A stretch of 64,000 nucleotides of DNA from Escherichia phage PECP20. Each line of letters opens with the position of its first letter. The first letter of the stretch is position 1. Positions 8,206 to 27,394 of this stretch are shown here, piece after piece. The stretch lies in the sequence record OQ873415.1; one strand, written 5' to 3'. The position numbers and the translations under genes were made by a program. Below the pieces are notes generated by a model that saw only the letters and a program-made list of their open reading frames with translations, had not been told where the DNA came from and searched no databases.

Positions 8206-9195
8206 TTATTTATAGTAAGAATTATGATTTTCGAGATAGACTTGCTCAAGGAAATCATCCCAGAAACTCATATCTACTTTTTGTTGCATACCATTCTTGG
8301 CAGCTTGTTCTGACGCATGTTCAACTTGGTCAACGATATCTTCTAGGAATTCTTGTACAGTTTTAAACGTATGTTTACCAAGCTTAACATCGAGAATAAA
8401 TGGAGCATCCTGAAGTGGGTAAACCAGGTCGCCGGTTTTGTAAATTTCCAATAATTGAAGTCCACCACGACATGCATGACTCAATGCTTTCCAGTCAATA
8501 CCTTCGTTAGCTTCTGCTTTACGAGCACGTTCACCATAGTTCTCTTCCAGTTTAACCAGGATAGCATTGAACTCTTTATTGGTTAACGTGTCTTGGAATT
8601 TACGGTCTAACAGACTATAGAATGTTTGCTTACCTGTTTTCTCGTTTTCGGTTTCAACCCATGAAGCAAATTCACCTACAGGTAGAACATTCTTCATATG
8701 TGATAAACGAATTACTGCACCATTATCAAAGTATTGTCCCCATTCATTAGAACGTTTAAGGGCTTGACGAAGAACAGCCAGTCGAGAACCCTTGACACCG
8801 TATTTAGAAGCTTGCTTACGGACGTACCCTAAATAAGATTTCATGTTAGTGGTATAGAAACGAGACCTGTTATCTTGAATATACTTCCATACATCAGGCA
8901 AATCAGATTTAACTACTAGACTTGGTGGAGTATGAAGCATATCTAATGCGACGGTTTCACCATCTGCAGCTAGTTTAAAGAAATATTTGAGACTATATAA
9001 CTCATGGTCTACGTCGTCTTTTGTGTTCTTAGAAGATGTGTTATTCGTGTTCTTGCTCATATGTTCTTTAACGTTACCGGTCAAAATATCACGAGCATGA
9101 GGGACATAAATTTCTTTAAAATCGACGTCAGATTCAGGAGTAGACGTTCCATAAAGGTGGCTACCAAAGTAGCTTTTCATAATTGTTTTCATCAT
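8206..9195 (-). CDS. nucleotidyltransferase-fold protein (minimal-NTase signature) with about 200-aa C-terminal extension
   Basis: N-terminal GSHLYGTSTPESDVD fits the G-S-x3-G-x5-S-D-x-D pattern of Pol-beta-type nucleotidyltransferases; 329 aa. Confidence 0.7.
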   Translation of the reverse strand: MMKTIMKSYFGSHLYGTSTPESDVDFKEIYVPHARDILTGNVKEHMSKNTNNTSSKNTKDDVDHELYSLKYFFKLAADGETVALDMLHTPPSLVVKSDLPDVWKYIQDNRSRFYTTNMKSYLGYVRKQASKYGVKGSRLAVLRQALKRSNEWGQYFDNGAVIRLSHMKNVLPVGEFASWVETENEKTGKQTFYSLLDRKFQDTLTNKEFNAILVKLEENYGERARKAEANEGIDWKALSHACRGGLQLLEIYKTGDLVYPLQDAPFILDVKLGKHTFKTVQEFLEDIVDQVEHASEQAAKNGMQQKVDMSFWDDFLEQVYLENHNSYYK

Positions 9196-17626: not shown

Positions 17627-17908
17627 CTATTTTTCTGAAGCGCCTGAAATATATTTTTCAAGACGTTGTTTCATCAGCGAGCCGTTCTTAGCGATTTCTT
17701 CTGGTTTATCGCACATACGCAACAAGGCTTCAAGCTTAGCGATATCGCTGGTACGTTCAAATTTGCGAGTATCTATCTTACTAGCAAGTTCAGAAATACG
17801 TGCTAATAGACTTTCAGCTTCAACCAAAGCTGCACCTAGCTTAGTTGCAAATGTGTCAGTAGCTTCGTTAAGAATAGATTCTGATAAAAATTCACTATAT
17901 GTTTTCAT
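17627..17908 (-). CDS. internal-protein-like (capsid-targeted) protein, about 93 aa
   Basis: Start set at [10 protein letters not shown] leader; lies between denV and e as ipII/ipIII do in T4. Confidence 0.6.
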
Positions 17909-18393
17909 ATATACGCTTTCCAAGTTCCTGTTTTAAATGTTGAGATTACGCGTTTCGCGCGATTAGGTGTCTGACGATACCATTTAGATTGAGCTAGATT
18001 TACTGCCGCTTCATCCCAACGTTTCTGTTTAAGCATACGAAGAGAATTAGTAAAACCGGCGACTCCTGCTACACCCATTTGGAAGACCATATTGACCAAT
18101 GCACACCGACGAACTGCATCTAAAGAATCATATACCGGTTTAAGTTTAGCATTACCCAAGATTCCGCGAACGGCTTTATCGACGTCTTCATTAAATAGCT
18201 TTTCAGCCTCATCAAGGGTAATTGTACCGTTGCATTTACGACCGATCATTCTGTCAAGTTCAGCTTTAGCTACGGCTAAAGACTGGTTCTTTGTTACCAA
18301 GTGGCCTATGCCAATCGTCCAAAAGCCTTCAGTGTCTTTGTATAAAGTCAGTCTAAGACCTTCGTCATTACGAAGCATTTCAAATATATTCAT
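17905..18393 (-). CDS. e: lysozyme (endolysin), T4 e type
   Basis: [32 protein letters not shown]... near-identical to T4 lysozyme as recalled; catalytic E11 and D20 conserved. Confidence 0.95.
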
Positions 18394-18886: not shown

Positions 18887-19127
18887 ATCGGTCCCATGAT
18901 TTGGCCATCAATTCGGACATAAATTCTTCAATGCGCGTTTCTTTAGATGGACTTTCACTATTAGAGACCGCAAGTTTGTAATCTGCAATAGGACAGAACA
19001 TATCAAGGTCCATATTAAGATCGTCTTTGATTTTTTCTTCTGACACATCTTTATCATACGTGTACAGATAACTATCGCATGATTCTGATTTAATGTAAAT
19101 TGCTATACTCATCTCAAATTCCTGCAT
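18876..19127 (-). CDS. hypothetical protein, 83 aa
   Basis: ORF track. Confidence 0.5.
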   Translation of the reverse strand: MQEFEMSIAIYIKSESCDSYLYTYDKDVSEEKIKDDLNMDLDMFCPIADYKLAVSNSESPSKETRIEEFMSELMAKSWDRYDE

Positions 19128-19600
19128 TCGGTAATAAAACGTTCAACTTCGTTATTCTTGGCCTTTATCTTGTCTTTACGTTCCTGTAAACTACTTTTAA
19201 CAAGATTAATAATGATGGCGGCGGTACCGCCGCCAATGATGCCACCAACAACACTTACGATACTAGATGCTAATAAGATAGCAATAATATCAACAAAACC
19301 GAAAGAACTCACCTTAGTACTGAAAAACCATACCGACGGTACAAATATAATCCATCCTGTTATCCATTGGCACTTATTGAAAAACTTTTCAAGCTCAGCT
19401 TGAGTTGTTCGTATTACTTCATCGATAGGTTGATATCCATTAATGTATCTGTTCACGATAATACCTGCTGGCTGGTCGATTTTAAATTCTTGGCAAATAC
19501 GTTTCACTAAGTAGGATGGACATCCTGTCCAATCCACTGAATAGTACGAAATACCTTCGTTGCCATCGTCTATATTAGACCAATATGTTTTGTTAATCAT
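19109..19600 (-). CDS. hypothetical membrane protein, 163 aa
   Basis: ORF track; central hydrophobic helices; C-terminal ERFITECR. Confidence 0.55.
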   Translation of the reverse strand: MINKTYWSNIDDGNEGISYYSVDWTGCPSYLVKRICQEFKIDQPAGIIVNRYINGYQPIDEVIRTTQAELEKFFNKCQWITGWIIFVPSVWFFSTKVSSFGFVDIIAILLASSIVSVVGGIIGGGTAAIIINLVKSSLQERKDKIKAKNNEVERFITECRNLR

Positions 19601-20286
19601 TACCAGCCTTCCATAGGGAATTCCAGATAAACTTGAGCATTGACACGAATTTCATTGGTAATCTTTTTAACTCGGTCTGTATTACGAGATACACGTCCGA
19701 ACCAACGCCATCCATTACTAATTGCACGAGAACCAGTGTGCCATGTTTGCCAATCAAACTGAAGAAGAGTACGGTCCGGAGCTTCCCATTTCTCTAGTTC
19801 ACCTTTTTCAATTTTTTCGAGGACTTCTTTGTGCCACTGGCGATAGATAAGTTCGCCATCAGGAATCTGACTGAACTCTGCAGTTCCTGTTGCAAAATGA
19901 GTAGGACACACATCAGCGTTAACAAGACCAAGAATATGTTCAGACAAATAGCGAGGATTGTCATAGTCAGGTTGTCCTGCAGTAATAAAATGTTGACCAA
20001 CCGGAATATCCGGGCGTGGTACGTCATCATGGTGATAACCAGGAATAGCAGGATACCAACCAGGCATCAGCATATGGACTCGTGAATCAAATACTACATC
20101 TGAGTCTTTCCAATCGTCAGGGAGATTTTGGATAAAGCTACGAGTAATTGGACCGCCGTTATCAAAAGCAAAATTCAAATCGCAATTAAAGAACATAGGC
20201 TCGTTTTTAATCTGGTCATTTTTAATCGCATGAGCAAAACCACCTACTGCACGAGCTTGACTATTAAACACTTTAGAACTATTCAT
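19600..20286 (-). CDS. hypothetical protein, 228 aa, His/Asp-rich
   Basis: ORF track; segments GYHHDDVP and CPTHFATG suggest a metal site, unverified. Confidence 0.6.
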   Translation of the reverse strand: MNSSKVFNSQARAVGGFAHAIKNDQIKNEPMFFNCDLNFAFDNGGPITRSFIQNLPDDWKDSDVVFDSRVHMLMPGWYPAIPGYHHDDVPRPDIPVGQHFITAGQPDYDNPRYLSEHILGLVNADVCPTHFATGTAEFSQIPDGELIYRQWHKEVLEKIEKGELEKWEAPDRTLLQFDWQTWHTGSRAISNGWRWFGRVSRNTDRVKKITNEIRVNAQVYLEFPMEGW

Positions 20287-20287
20287 A

Positions 20288-20593
20288 TTATTTTCCTCGA
20301 CATTCTTTAATGAAATTTTCTAGATTGGTAGATTCAATAGCTTTTTTACGAGCTTCTGCGTGTTCTTCTTCAGACAATTTACATTTATAATTGACCCAGA
20401 CGTTATGGTCGAAACTAGTCGTGGCATATAATAACAATGCTCCAACGAATAGCAAAAACGGCGATAAGAATACAAAACCAGGAACACCATCCATACTGTA
20501 AGCCTTTTGTAATACTGCAACAGAAAGAGCTGCGTAAAAAAGTGATACAAATATTGTTAAAAGACCAATTCGGTTGGTTTCGCCTAATTTCAT
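20288..20593 (-). CDS. hypothetical membrane protein, 101 aa
   Basis: ORF track; two hydrophobic helices; C-terminal ENFIKECR. Confidence 0.55.
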   Translation of the reverse strand: MKLGETNRIGLLTIFVSLFYAALSVAVLQKAYSMDGVPGFVFLSPFLLFVGALLLYATTSFDHNVWVNYKCKLSEEEHAEARKKAIESTNLENFIKECRGK

Positions 20594-20932: not shown

Positions 20933-21889
20933 TTATTTGAAAGGTTTTACCATATGAAAGTTTTGTTTGAAACGCTTGACGTAATCGTCGTGTCCTAAGC
21001 TTTGGTACATACTTACTACTTTGTTATAATTTTCCCAAGCGAACTCACGGAACCATCCTGATGTGATTGATGTACAGACCTTTTCAAGGGCCATCATAAA
21101 ACTATCACGTGGATGGATTTCAAAGTTATTAGGAATCTGAGAACGTTCTAACGCTAGTACACATGATTCTTCGTATACGCCGGCCAATTTGACCATTTCT
21201 GGTAATGATTCGAACTTCTCGCGTGAGGTCATGACTTCAGAACCATCTTTCATATAAAATGTATACGCTGGACGGTCTGTTAGTGCAATGGCTTCATGAA
21301 TAGTATCATGGTCATATGTATAGATGTCATCTTTAAAGAACGCACTTTTAGAAGTGTCAAGAACTGGGTGAGCATAATTCAAGGTTTCTTTCTGGCGTTT
21401 CAGCATAATTTCAGTAAGTTCATCGTTCAGTGTAACACCTTTACCACGAAGATACTGAATATGGTTCATAGTCTTTAAAAAGAATGGATTATTTTTCTTG
21501 AAACGATGAGACATCTTAATTGCAAGACATATCTCAGGAGTTGCCCAGTAAAACCCGTTCAAACGGTCTTTAGTCAAATTTTTCTTGGCGTATTTTAAAA
21601 GGTCATAAGAAGACGTGAAATCTTCAGGAGTGAGTTCACCGACTAGTTCGCGAACGTTAGTGATAGCCGGAACGATGTATGCTTCAAAATGAGTTTCGCG
21701 TCCATTATGGAAGCATTTGAAAACTTGGACATCAGGGTTATCTTGGTGAACATATACACCCATCATTTGATTTTTGAATGCATTCCAAGAACCTTGGTCC
21801 GCAATAAAGTCCCAATCACTATTTTTAATAGCGCTAGAATCAATAAGACCGTGATAGTGAAGTGCACGAGAACCAATAACTAACATCAT
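20933..21889 (-). CDS. hypothetical protein, 318 aa, possible degenerate nucleotidyltransferase-like N-terminus
   Basis: ORF track; N-terminal LVIGSRALHYHG...SDWDF loosely resembles an NTase GS...DxD motif. Confidence 0.65.
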   Translation of the reverse strand: MMLVIGSRALHYHGLIDSSAIKNSDWDFIADQGSWNAFKNQMMGVYVHQDNPDVQVFKCFHNGRETHFEAYIVPAITNVRELVGELTPEDFTSSYDLLKYAKKNLTKDRLNGFYWATPEICLAIKMSHRFKKNNPFFLKTMNHIQYLRGKGVTLNDELTEIMLKRQKETLNYAHPVLDTSKSAFFKDDIYTYDHDTIHEAIALTDRPAYTFYMKDGSEVMTSREKFESLPEMVKLAGVYEESCVLALERSQIPNNFEIHPRDSFMMALEKVCTSITSGWFREFAWENYNKVVSMYQSLGHDDYVKRFKQNFHMVKPFK

Positions 21890-22175: not shown

Positions 22176-22216
22176 TGATAGGACTACTATAACATAGCCC
22201 TATCTTGTTGTAAACT
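22176..22216 (-). promoter_or_regulatory. early promoter cassette
   Basis: Plus strand gataggactactataacatagccctatcttgttgtaaac. Confidence 0.55.
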
Positions 22217-22219
22217 GTT

Positions 22220-22417
22220 TTAGCAAGAATAACTAGATGATACCCAGCCTTGAACAGTGATACTATTGTGGGATAATGAGATCGCGTCCTGGAGATTCAG
22301 ACCTGCGTTATCTTCAATCCATAATGTAACTTCTTCGCGTTCTTCTGCTGCAATTTGGAACAGGTTTTCCAGAGCAGCTACTGCCGTACGTACAGCACAA
22401 TCTAATTCACGAGACAT
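22220..22417 (-). CDS. small protein, 65 aa, WxSSSxxC C-terminal family
   Basis: Ends GWVSSSYSC; tandem with two paralogs. Confidence 0.55.
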   Translation of the reverse strand: MSRELDCAVRTAVAALENLFQIAAEEREEVTLWIEDNAGLNLQDAISLSHNSITVQGWVSSSYSC

Positions 22418-22426
22418 ATTGTTTCC

Positions 22427-22654
22427 TTAGCAAGACATAGAGGAAGAGAACCAGAAACCTTTGCCTTCCGGAATTCCATAATCGTTACGGATCCAGCCAT
22501 ATTCATCATATTCTGAACTGGTCGCCGGAATATATCGGTTAAGTCCTTCAGCATACACATGAAAATACTCGCCGGTTTTATCAGCTAATTGTTGGCCTTC
22601 ACAGATTAGTGCTCGAATTTGGTCTTCAATTTCTTTAACGGTTTTAGTGGTCAT
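22427..22654 (-). CDS. small protein, 75 aa, WxSSSxxC C-terminal family
   Basis: Ends GFWFSSSMSC. Confidence 0.55.
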   Translation of the reverse strand: MTTKTVKEIEDQIRALICEGQQLADKTGEYFHVYAEGLNRYIPATSSEYDEYGWIRNDYGIPEGKGFWFSSSMSC

Positions 22655-22663
22655 TTTATTTCC

Positions 22664-22957
22664 TTAACATATTTGAGAAGAGGAGATCCATACACCGGAA
22701 GTAACGATACCATTTTCGTCAACTTCACCGCCATAGTTTTCAATTTCATCGCGCATCCAGCGACTACATTCATAACCAACAGGATAGTAAGTACGACCTG
22801 AACCATATTCACCTACATCAAATGAAACACCATACTTATCTGCGATAATAGTAGCTTCATTCTCGATATGGTCTTGAGCACGAAGAAGTTTGCTGATTGC
22901 TTCTTCTGCAGATTTAGCGTCATTGTATTCAGGGATTACGATTTCAATTTTACTCAT
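22664..22957 (-). CDS. small protein, 97 aa, WxSSSxxC C-terminal family
   Basis: Ends GVWISSSQIC. Confidence 0.55.
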   Translation of the reverse strand: MSKIEIVIPEYNDAKSAEEAISKLLRAQDHIENEATIIADKYGVSFDVGEYGSGRTYYPVGYECSRWMRDEIENYGGEVDENGIVTSGVWISSSQIC

Positions 22958-23313
22958 TTTCTACATTCCTTAATAAAGTTTTCGATTGTTTCATTTTCAC
23001 GTTTAGCTAGGAGTTCATTATAACTAATCATTTGAGAAGCGTAAACCTTTTTATTTTTCTTGTTGTGGTTTATAAAATCGTAGTAAAAATAGACTACAGT
23101 ACAAAATGATGCGATGGATGCAAAGGCTTGGGTATACCGTAAGTCCTGCCATTGGTCTGTGAATCCACCAGTGTTCCCTATAAATCCTAACACAACGCCG
23201 TCAATAAGAAATCCAACTAATCCAAAGGCAAATCCCATGCCAATACTCATAATAAAAATTAGAATGTTCTCACCAAGAGAAGGCCATACGGTTAAGAGTT
23301 GAGGCTTTTGCAT
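22954..23313 (-). CDS. hypothetical membrane protein, 119 aa
   Basis: ORF track; hydrophobic helices; C-terminal ENFIKECRK. Confidence 0.55.
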   Translation of the reverse strand: MQKPQLLTVWPSLGENILIFIMSIGMGFAFGLVGFLIDGVVLGFIGNTGGFTDQWQDLRYTQAFASIASFCTVVYFYYDFINHNKKNKKVYASQMISYNELLAKRENETIENFIKECRK

Positions 23314-23687
23314 CTTATTTCCTTAACGAATTCCATAGCTTCTTCATATTCATACTTTTTAACAGCTTCATCATACTGAGCTTGGGCTTTTGCGCACTGA
23401 ACTTTCCATTCTCTTAATCGGGCTCTGTGATGACGGCCTTGGTGCCAATATCCTACCCAATTAATAGGCATTAATAAAAACGGTACAATAAGTGGTGCGA
23501 CGAACATTAATGAAAATGCTGCATCAGACGATATAACTTCACTAGAATCTAAAACAGCTCCTATAATCATAAAGATTAAAAATGCTAAAGCTAAAATAGG
23601 ACCAAATAATACTTCATACGGGATTAATTTACGTTTGTATTCGTAGGCCCAGGGCTTACTTGGCATGTATAGGGTTGGCTTTGACAT
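23292..23687 (-). CDS. hypothetical membrane protein, about 131 aa
   Basis: Track ORF trimmed to ATG (MSKPTLYM...); hydrophobic helices. Confidence 0.55.
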   Translation of the reverse strand: MSKPTLYMPSKPWAYEYKRKLIPYEVLFGPILALAFLIFMIIGAVLDSSEVISSDAAFSLMFVAPLIVPFLLMPINWVGYWHQGRHHRARLREWKVQCAKAQAQYDEAVKKYEYEEAMEFVKEIRCKSLNS

Positions 23688-24279
23688 ATTCTCTACATTC
23701 CATAATAAATTGCTCAAGGATTAAATTGTTAGTGAAATTAGGACTAACAACCATAGTTTCATAAAGCGCATCAATAGCACTTAAAGCATCAACTCTTTTA
23801 AGCAAAGGCTTGCCTTCATACATAGTTTCAGAATCGATGATTAACGTAAAGTAATATTTTTTATTATCGACTAGAACTTCTGTATCGATATAAAACATAT
23901 TAGACCTCAGAAGCTTATCTCTAAAACCATAATAATCTTCAGAGCGTTCGCTGATATATTCCCATTCAGTGTTTAAACAACAAACAGACCACGTAGGAGC
24001 AACGAAATCAGTGAATCTAATATCATGGTCTGCAACTAGTTTAGCAATAGCTCCGATATCATGAATCATAATACCTGGGGCTAATAAAGATTTTCTGCTA
24101 TGGCTAGCCGTTTTCTCGGTGGTCTCATAAGAAGACGACCAGTACCATTTACGTCCGGTTGCAACATATCGTAATGAATCAACTAAAGACGTAGGTGGAT
24201 TTACCTTATCTCGGAACTCTTCGAACATTGAGTCAATATCATTATTTTGGTTTCGCATGTTAGCTCCTTTATTATCCAA
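23656..24279 (-). CDS. hypothetical protein, 207 aa
   Basis: ORF track; C-terminal EQFIMECRE. Confidence 0.6.
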   Translation of the reverse strand: MDNKGANMRNQNNDIDSMFEEFRDKVNPPTSLVDSLRYVATGRKWYWSSSYETTEKTASHSRKSLLAPGIMIHDIGAIAKLVADHDIRFTDFVAPTWSVCCLNTEWEYISERSEDYYGFRDKLLRSNMFYIDTEVLVDNKKYYFTLIIDSETMYEGKPLLKRVDALSAIDALYETMVVSPNFTNNLILEQFIMECREYVKANPIHAK

Positions 24280-27237: not shown

Positions 27238-27314
27238 TGGTCGAGACAGAAGGATTCTAACCTTCAACCTACGGATTAGAAGTCCGTTGCTCCATACAAT
27301 TGAGCTATGCCTCG
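27238..27314 (-). tRNA. tRNA-Arg (anticodon UCU)
   Basis: Hand-folded cloverleaf: acceptor CGAGGCA/TGTCTCG, D-stem GCTC/GAGC, anticodon stem ACGGA/TCCGT with loop CTTCTAA, T-arm GAAGG-TTAGAAT-CCTTC, encoded CCA. Confidence 0.75.
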
Positions 27315-27320
27315 AATATA

Positions 27321-27394
27321 TGGCCCAGACCAGATTCGAACTGGTAACCTTTCCCTTATGAGGGGACTGCTGCTAACCATTGAGCTACAGGGCC
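27321..27394 (-). tRNA. tRNA with CAU anticodon (Ile or Met type)
   Basis: Hand-folded: acceptor GGCCCTG/CTGGGCC (one mismatch), anticodon loop CTCATAA, T-arm ACCAG-TTCGAAT-CTGGT, CCA encoded; D-arm irregular. Confidence 0.55.

Follow-up and report, generated by a model that had tools for sequence, protein, structure and literature searches.

A predicted nucleotidyltransferase of RB69-like phages belongs to a virus-restricted family encoded together with small acidic proteins that end in a conserved Cys tail

Among the enzymes that adopt the nucleotidyltransferase (NTase) fold, GlnD (acting on PII) and GlnE nucleotidylylate a partner protein, and MenT, CCA-adding enzymes and RlaP have RNA or tRNA 3' ends as their substrates. 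MntA, also of the NTase fold, nucleotidylylates its partner HepT in the HEPN/MNT system (PMC7641770, PMC11586414); the toxin MenT1 comes with a small partner, MenA1, that neutralises it (PMC10435456). The gene described here lies in a stretch of 64,000 nucleotides from Escherichia phage PECP20 (OQ873415.1), which was analysed as a whole and is called the window below, and its 318-residue product had been picked out in an earlier reading of the letters alone (the original prediction) as carrying a possible NTase-like N-terminus. It is well supported, from conserved motifs and a structural model, that this gene encodes a predicted catalytically competent NTase of the Pol-beta superfamily. It is equally well supported, from the gene neighbourhoods, that the enzyme forms a conserved two-gene-family module with small proteins characterized by the C-terminal sequence G-x-W-x-S-S-S-x-x-C-stop, hereafter referred to as tail proteins.

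With MntA/HepT, GlnD and GlnE, the predicted enzyme shares a minimal Pol-beta core, and the transfer of a nucleoside monophosphate to a hydroxyl of a genetically linked small protein provides a model of what it might do. The acceptor in those systems is a Tyr of the HEPN RNase, of PII or of glutamine synthetase, whereas the candidate acceptors here are Ser or Cys residues on an unrelated acidic domain; no homology between those enzymes and the phage NTase is detectable beyond the superfamily, and the activity of the latter is one that we infer. The MenT and AbiEii proteins resemble it in their architecture, an N-terminal NTase sheet with metal-binding Asp followed by a helical lobe, and in having a small partner gene adjacent. 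However, the helical domain of the phage protein (~210 aa) is far larger than the four-helix bundle of MenT1, and its partners, which come in several copies and have no relation to MenA or AbiEi, are characterised by their W-SS-C end. In contrast to a bacterial toxin-antitoxin family, the family described here is restricted to viruses and lacks the DUF1814 signature.

The NTase starts with an ATG codon and opens with MMLVIGSRALHYHGLIDSSAIKNSDWDF in the list of open reading frames (ORFs) of the window. In terms of domain organization, it matches Pfam DUF7277 over residues 2-101 (E 9e-28) and DUF7275 over residues 120-305 (E 3e-79), and over its full length it belongs to PHROG 2141 (E 1.7e-150). 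PHROG 2141 carries no function; the two Pfam entries are likewise function-less, and neither the NTase assignment nor the partner family appears to be part of any of the three. Searches of NCBIfam, PADLOC and the PDB sequences with the query returned no meaningful match; a PADLOC match to Cas8b (E 0.0094) and a PDB match to PsaB, based on a common GWFReyaWeN stretch (E 0.5-1.8), were both dismissed as chance.

The N-terminal domain displays all of the residues expected of a working catalytic core. Across 78 aligned representatives that share 36-55% identity with the query, the hG[GS] turn is formed by G6 (78/78) and S7 (75/78), the [DE]h[DE]h motif is present as D25-W-D27-F, with D25 in 77/78 (the exception being a Glu) and D27 in 78/78, and the third carboxylate, within F-E69-A, is Glu or Asp in 75/78. 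The original prediction had described an early GS...DxD-like segment with longer spacing than usual, in an N-terminus that it considered possibly degenerate. The segment is indeed there, as G6-S7 and D25-W-D27, and its conservation among 78 homologs argues against a chance resemblance. The spacing is long as well: 17 residues separate S7 from D25 in the query, and 10-26 do so across the 78 homologs, with a mode of 15, as compared to the 9-13 residues found between GS and DxD in classical Pol-beta NTases. The degeneracy, by contrast, does not stand: as all catalytic positions are conserved across the family, carboxylates and GS turn included, the NTase is not a degenerate one; the NTase-like character and the long spacing are retained from that description.

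The structural model leads in the same direction. The AlphaFold prediction (mean predicted local distance difference test, pLDDT, 91.5; predicted template-modelling score, pTM, 0.86) places a strand at residues 2-5, the GS turn, a helix at 7-12, a strand at 26-31 with the DxD at its start and a helix at 32-41, followed by predicted strands at 45-47, 54-61 and 64-73, the last of which would carry E69; this motif placement and this order of strands and helices are those of a minimal Pol-beta NTase. A confident assignment to a non-NTase fold had been named as the outcome that would overturn the NTase reading, and the best PDB fold matches turn out to be NTases. The Foldseek list is headed by an NTase-like protein (5uvd, E 3.7e-3) and by MenT1 (8an4, E 5.3e-3, 185 columns, target-normalised template-modelling score, TM, of 0.50), followed by Cid1 and a CCA-adding enzyme; matches at the level of 5uvd and MenT1 reach query-normalised TM values of 0.30-0.33, and 0.50 is the highest target-normalised value.

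The DUF7275 domain, all-helical in the AlphaFold model, is the most conserved part of the NTase. Its invariant residues (K125, H128, K139, T140, H194, D195, H198, E240, E241, E248, R249, S274, S277, G278 and R281) are rich in Lys, Arg, His, Asp and Glu, and the domain is specific to the family; it has no sequence relative in the PDB, and none of the 50 best matches given by Foldseek is specific to this domain. The presence of H128, H194-D195 and H198 raised the idea of an HD-domain phosphohydrolase, which was rejected: none of the 78 members has an HD-family Pfam match at E <= 1, the 50 best PDB fold matches include no HD protein, and an H-to-HD spacing of 66 residues is atypical for HD domains. 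In two-lobe NTases such as MenT1, the probable counterpart of the first part of DUF7275 is the helical lobe. An invariant Lys is found early in the lobe in both cases (K125 here, K137 in MenT1); K125 and position 143, an Asp in 72/78 representatives and a His in the query, are candidate counterparts of K137 and D152 of MenT1.

The second component of the module emerges from the neighbourhoods of the NTase genes. The comparison covered 90 loci, the window and 89 related loci extended by 6 kb in both directions where the contig allowed, with ORFs called mechanically throughout and the NTases split at <60% identity into 27 lineages. When the ORFs on the NTase strand are clustered, a single family besides the NTase itself is widely shared; its 175 members, which start at a median distance of 1.1 kb upstream of the NTase, are spread over 19/27 lineages and 76/90 loci, while no other neighbour family in this clustering reaches more than 5/27 lineages. 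These similarity-defined members end in Cys in 157 of the 175 cases, as against 4.9% of the other ORFs, and they carry Trp at position -7 (85%) and Ser at positions -4 (90%) and -3 (89%). A motif scan through 17,894 open frames on both strands yields 204 matches, 200 of them on the strand of the NTase; 178 of the 204 end within 2 kb upstream of it, covering 79/90 loci and 24/27 lineages, and in the remaining three the genes directly upstream encode variant tails (WESSESSEC, NWDGSSC and WQSSYSWSDSGC). Within the window, three of 953 frames match, and all three are located directly upstream of the NTase (22220-22957).

The pairing also holds beyond the set in which it was defined. In Acinetobacter Lazarusvirus DP45, phAPEC8 and Pseudomonas Otagovirus REC, whose groups were outside the clustering set, tail genes are located just upstream of the NTase, with two copies in phAPEC8. 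Reciprocally, when four tail proteins were picked from a profile search of the whole database, 4/4 had a gene with DUF7277 and DUF7275 no more than ~1.1 kb downstream on the same strand. The association persists across Straboviridae, Phapecoctavirus, Otagovirus, contigs of jumbo size and phages binned into metagenome-assembled genomes (MAGs) of other phyla, and the genetic link between the NTase and the tail family looks obligate. In the open-access literature, no work was found on either the NTase family or the tail family; the pairing with Cys-tailed proteins appears undescribed, and the NTase, whose family is represented in Pfam by domains of unknown function alone, constitutes a new variant, at the family level, within a known superfamily.

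The tail proteins are 41-207 aa in length (median 86) and occur in 1-4 copies per locus. They are strongly acidic, with a median isoelectric point (pI) of 4.4, the median for the NTase being 6.2. Their bodies are only 20-40% identical, and the residues that are invariant in the family are limited to the Trp, two Ser and the terminal Cys; none has a Pfam domain or a functional name in any of the sources consulted. Some harbor the W-x-S-S-(x)-C unit twice, once internally, with ~20 further residues after it, and once at the terminus, as in phAPEC8 gp0079 (...DWQSSSCYGEGDDGFVVNSQGVWHSSSC), and because such internal units exist, the W-x-S-S-x-C unit is not strictly dependent on a free C-terminus. 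The AlphaFold model of the 97-aa tail protein (pLDDT 91.6) predicts a compact alpha/beta domain made of a long helix and a small sheet, in which the motif would supply the last strand (VWIS) and then a short helix at the terminus (SSQI), with pLDDT values of ~80-96; a fold search with this model against the PDB gave nothing below E 0.5. A separate observation concerns P0230, a 377-aa protein that looks like a tail protein (...QWNSSGGPAC) fused to an NTase and joined to it by a W. As a natural fusion it was rejected, since the gene caller most likely took a TGA stop for a Trp codon; if true, this reading implies an alternative genetic code in the host or in the phage.

The family is large, and it is well supported that the combination of DUF7277 and DUF7275 is essentially restricted to viruses. 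It comprises 2,246 clusters at 90% identity (E <= 1e-5) and 1,583 representatives at 50% identity (E <= 1e-3), nearly all of them ~300 aa in length with both domains present. Members are contained in 733 phage records, including T4-like phages of enterobacteria, Aeromonas and Acinetobacter, Pseudomonas Otagovirus, Phapecoctavirus, phages of Stenotrophomonas and others. Among 185,579 bacterial and archaeal species, each represented by one genome, just nine family loci were found, all nine on MAG contigs, and these are most likely binned phage. Several of the MAG loci are labelled Saccharibacteria. In the BFVD database, DUF7275 is also found in the giant-virus proteins A0A3G5AJ90 of Sylvanvirus (508 aa) and A0A3G5AE53 of Satyrvirus (571 aa), which match the whole NTase model at query-normalised TM values of 0.64-0.72 and have extra length in addition.

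This raises the question as to what the enzyme does to, or with, its partners. In the mechanism proposed here, the NTase would recognise the conserved tail end of the small acidic proteins and, using a nucleoside triphosphate or a nucleoside diphosphate-linked donor and a metal site made of D25, D27 and E69, would move a nucleotidyl or other phospho-linked group to the hydroxyl of an invariant Ser or the thiol of the terminal Cys; such a modification would serve to label or switch on a group of paralogous effectors of the phage. That the NTase modifies Ser or Cys of the tail proteins is the account that we favour, because the invariant residues of the tail are nucleophiles (Ser, Ser, Cys) while the bodies vary. 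It is drawn by analogy with known protein-modifying NTases and is held tentatively, with a likelihood somewhat short of even. In addition, since several divergent tail proteins accompany each enzyme, an arrangement of one enzyme with many substrates fits better than one of a single toxin with a single antitoxin. In a broader and more doubtful version, the module might be a virus-specific modification system, in which the NTase would put a nucleotide or phospho-linked group on the Ser-Ser...Cys end of diversifying acidic effectors and so arm or regulate host-takeover or anti-defence factors; the setting is one of many large virulent phages, with DUF7275 extending to giant viruses, and elimination of the installed group could give a dehydro residue or a thioether crosslink. 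The comparison with ribosomally synthesised and post-translationally modified peptides (RiPPs) holds for the multi-copy upstream genes. However, some tail proteins reach 207 aa, no conserved protease or transporter gene is found nearby in the neighbour clustering of the 27 lineages, and the idea of a floppy, RiPP-like core peptide is weakened by the prediction of a compact domain that includes the motif.

Several points weigh against the proposal that the NTase modifies the tail proteins. With regard to the enzyme, the PDB fold matches to solved NTases are weak (E ~4e-3 to 0.1; query-normalised TM 0.17-0.33), and neither the query nor the 78 members have a significant match to a curated NTase family of Pfam, the faint matches among the 78 being to DUF6036 in two (E 0.008) and to DUF4269 in one. 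For both reasons, the NTase assignment rests mainly on the motif pattern and the predicted topology. Minimal NTases commonly fail to match curated NTase profiles, which is why this lowers the NTase claim just slightly. With regard to the substrate, the motif is predicted to lie inside a compact fold and not in a flexible tail, so that access of the active site to it is not obvious, and the Trp and the Ser pair of the tail could be partly structural. With regard to the pairing, one or more unrelated genes often stand between the tail genes and the NTase, and the lineages overlap phylogenetically, many of them coming from T4-like phages. The regular expression for the motif was composed after the tails had been seen, and the statistics were for this reason recomputed on the similarity-defined cluster, as given above.

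The limits of the pairing are set by the most distant relatives, which also count against the proposal. The four relatives most distant from the query, encoded by Gordonia Aphelion, Streptomyces Wakanda, Vibrio R16F and DSS3_VP1, have no tail genes at their loci; these proteins are 248-301 aa in length and 26-34% identical to the query over the aligned part (the C-terminal domain alone in three of them). This outermost branch has a different candidate partner: in Aphelion, Wakanda and R16F, a gene for a small acidic protein, homologous among the three, lies immediately downstream, and its product ends in ...PREKxITVYE (V.P(R)EK.IT(V/K)YE). These downstream proteins may be an alternative partner family. 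As the distant relatives are without tail genes, the pairing is thus a feature of the core family that does not extend to the outermost branch.

Besides the modification of the tail proteins, the main alternative account, itself doubtful, would make them inhibitors, in the manner of antitoxins, or interchangeable specificity or regulatory subunits of an NTase acting on RNA or tRNA 3' ends. The best interpretable PDB fold match, MenT1, is a tRNA-modifying toxin; it is a two-lobe enzyme with catalytic Lys and Asp in its helical lobe and is neutralised by a protein of 68 aa (PMC10435456). The partners of the phage NTase are likewise small and acidic, encoded upstream, in the usual position of an antitoxin, and a folded domain is predicted for the tail protein. 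Yet the family is restricted to viruses and is no cellular toxin-antitoxin family, no DUF1814/AbiEii match is found in Pfam at E <= 1 for the query and the 78 members, and a set of 1-4 divergent partners for each enzyme, often with other genes in between, is unlike a toxin-antitoxin pair. An RNA substrate would agree with the RNA-repair genes near some loci, PNKP (L102, Wakanda) and RNA ligase 2 (DSS3_VP1), and with the tRNA clusters near the locus in Aphelion and in the window; however, the RNA-repair genes are not conserved neighbours, and the enzyme, with its median pI of 6.2, is not basic. Inhibition or regulation by the tail proteins also leaves the invariance of the Ser-Ser pair and of the terminal Cys unexplained. 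A role of the NTase in making or altering a small molecule or nucleotide, with the tail proteins binding, carrying or sequestering the product through their Ser/Cys end, seems improbable. The Pol-beta superfamily does include many enzymes that form small molecules or nucleotides, and the tail proteins, being small, acidic and multi-copy, have an analogy in phage sponge and acyl-carrier proteins. However, no similarity to the CD-NTase, SMODS or aminoglycoside NTase families emerged from Pfam, the scan of the 78 members or the fold search; the tail protein gives no sign of a ligand pocket and its fold search is without a match; and the Macro-domain gene located directly downstream of the NTase, which would suit such a product, is confined to one lineage.

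Two further alternatives deny the module or the enzyme altogether. Many of the sampled loci are T4-like with a conserved gene order, and unrelated genes often stand in between, as would be the case if two unrelated accessory genes were merely hitch-hiking or held together by inherited synteny. This is very improbable: the pairing survives in unrelated genome backbones, all other neighbour families change, and the module occupies different genomic positions in different phages. The last alternative, a degenerate and possibly inactive NTase-like protein that arose as a diverged paralog of the NTase encoded at 8206-9195, goes back to the original prediction and has next to no likelihood left. Both proteins are indeed encoded in the same phage genome, have similar lengths of ~320 aa and share the N-terminal GS...DxD signature of the superfamily. 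The 8206-9195 product (329 aa, minus strand), however, belongs to the Pfam family RlaP (PF10127) and to phrog_388; no PF10127 match is found in the 20933-21889 product, BLASTP between the two gives no similarity (best E 6.4), and hhalign of the NTase family profile against the 8206-9195 sequence aligns eight residues around the DxD at 0.1% probability. Their C-terminal halves are unrelated, and the catalytic residues of the NTase, as described above, are fully conserved. Judged by their sequences, the two share at most the superfamily; paralogy is unsupported and close to refuted. The known associations differ as well, RlaP being linked to RNA ligases (PMC7824862) and the DUF7277 and DUF7275 family to tail proteins. 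In many GenBank phage records, the RlaP-family NTase of 8206-9195 is called a thioredoxin, probably a propagated misannotation.

The window is an RB69-like Mosigvirus genome, and the 4 kb around the NTase are 99.2% identical to Escherichia phage LH01; a comparison with the annotations of RB69 and LH01 identifies the 20933-21889 product as the ortholog of RB69ORF134c. The original prediction of an ORF of ~320 codons at this place is borne out by a gene for 318 residues on the minus strand, and so is its location in an accessory stretch between gene e and the tRNAs, with the T4-lysozyme-like gene e at 17905-18393 and the two tRNAs of the window at 27238-27394. The corresponding block of RB69, ORF132c-139c between e.2 and e.3, is without a 'similar to T4' note in the RB69 record. 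T4 positions 1-50,000 contain neither a relative of the NTase nor an ORF with the tail motif; T4 nrdC.3 (308 aa, with small neighbour genes) was considered as a T4 counterpart and rejected, as it is unrelated to the NTase.

The features of the region and of the related loci are collected in the table. The 83-aa ORF that separates the tail genes from the NTase is not conserved with the module beyond close relatives, and the 228-aa ORF accompanies the NTase in 2/27 lineages and is probably outside the module. The five ORFs with a common FI-ECR end appear to form another paralogous family, intermingled with the NTase module; those at 19109-19600 and 20288-20593 match phrog_2203, annotated as 'membrane protein', a T4 e.2-like family. 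Sigma-70-like promoter matches number 15 in the region, as against 9.8 +/- 2.5 in shuffled sequences, which is weak evidence. At single loci elsewhere, the NTase gene is directly followed by one for a Macro domain (L104:4388-4861, a single lineage), a PNKP-like gene lies upstream (L102:1-640), and in DSS3_VP1 (L098:765-2310) a phosphoesterase and RNA ligase 2 are found 1.2 kb upstream. RNA ligase, PNKP, tRNA, Macro and similar genes are each found in single lineages, and none is a conserved neighbour.

Table. Features of the NTase locus in the window and of related loci; positions are those of the window unless a locus is named.
Feature	Position	Strand	Basis and remarks
NTase gene	20933..21889	minus	318 aa + stop; RB69ORF134c ortholog; Pfam DUF7277 + DUF7275, PHROG 2141
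N-terminal domain, predicted minimal Pol-beta-type NTase core (aa 1-105)	21575..21889	minus	DUF7277, motifs, predicted topology
Catalytic-motif codons	G6-S7 21869-21874; D25 21815-21817; D27 21809-21811; E69 21683-21685	minus	
C-terminal helical domain (aa 106-318, DUF7275)	20936..21574	minus	Pfam, alignment, model
Tail protein 1, 97 aa, ends GVWISSSQIC	22664..22957	minus	phrog_899; motif 22667-22690
Tail protein 2, 75 aa, ends GFWFSSSMSC	22427..22654	minus	phrog_899; motif 22430-22453
Tail protein 3, 65 aa, ends GWVSSSYSC	22220..22417	minus	phrog_4882; motif 22223-22246
Intervening ORF, 83 aa	21918..22169	minus	phrog_3723; no tail motif; between tail genes and NTase
Sigma-70-like promoter match, TTTACG-17 nt-TATAAT	23017..23045	minus	consensus match only; just upstream of tail gene 1
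Sigma-70-like promoter match, TTTACA-17 nt-TATAGT	22186..22214	minus	consensus match only; upstream of 83-aa ORF and NTase
228-aa ORF, RB69ORF132c ortholog	19600-20286	minus	phrog_1843; no Pfam match; 650 bp downstream of NTase
Five ORFs with common end ...(N/E)FI(K/T/M)ECR(K/GK/NLR...)	19109-19600, 20288-20593, 22954-23313, 23292-23717, 23656-24279	minus	
Two-unit tail proteins	L020, L055, L039, L074, L004:3413-3631		internal and terminal W-x-S-S-(x)-C unit
Downstream PREKxITVYE-type genes	L096:4100-4390, L097:4094-4393, L099:4111-4476		loci of the distant relatives

RB69 and related phages serve as models and are candidates for use in therapy, and the e.2-e.3 block of their genomes is annotated solely in terms of hypothetical proteins. 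Through the present analysis, two Pfam domains of unknown function gain a specific enzyme assignment, that of an intact NTase, as well as a link to a second, unnamed protein family. If the NTase does modify the tail proteins, the module would constitute a new viral post-translational modification pathway and provide a handle on a family of small phage proteins; if the role of the tail proteins is instead to regulate an NTase directed at RNA, the module would represent a phage equivalent of MenT-type systems.

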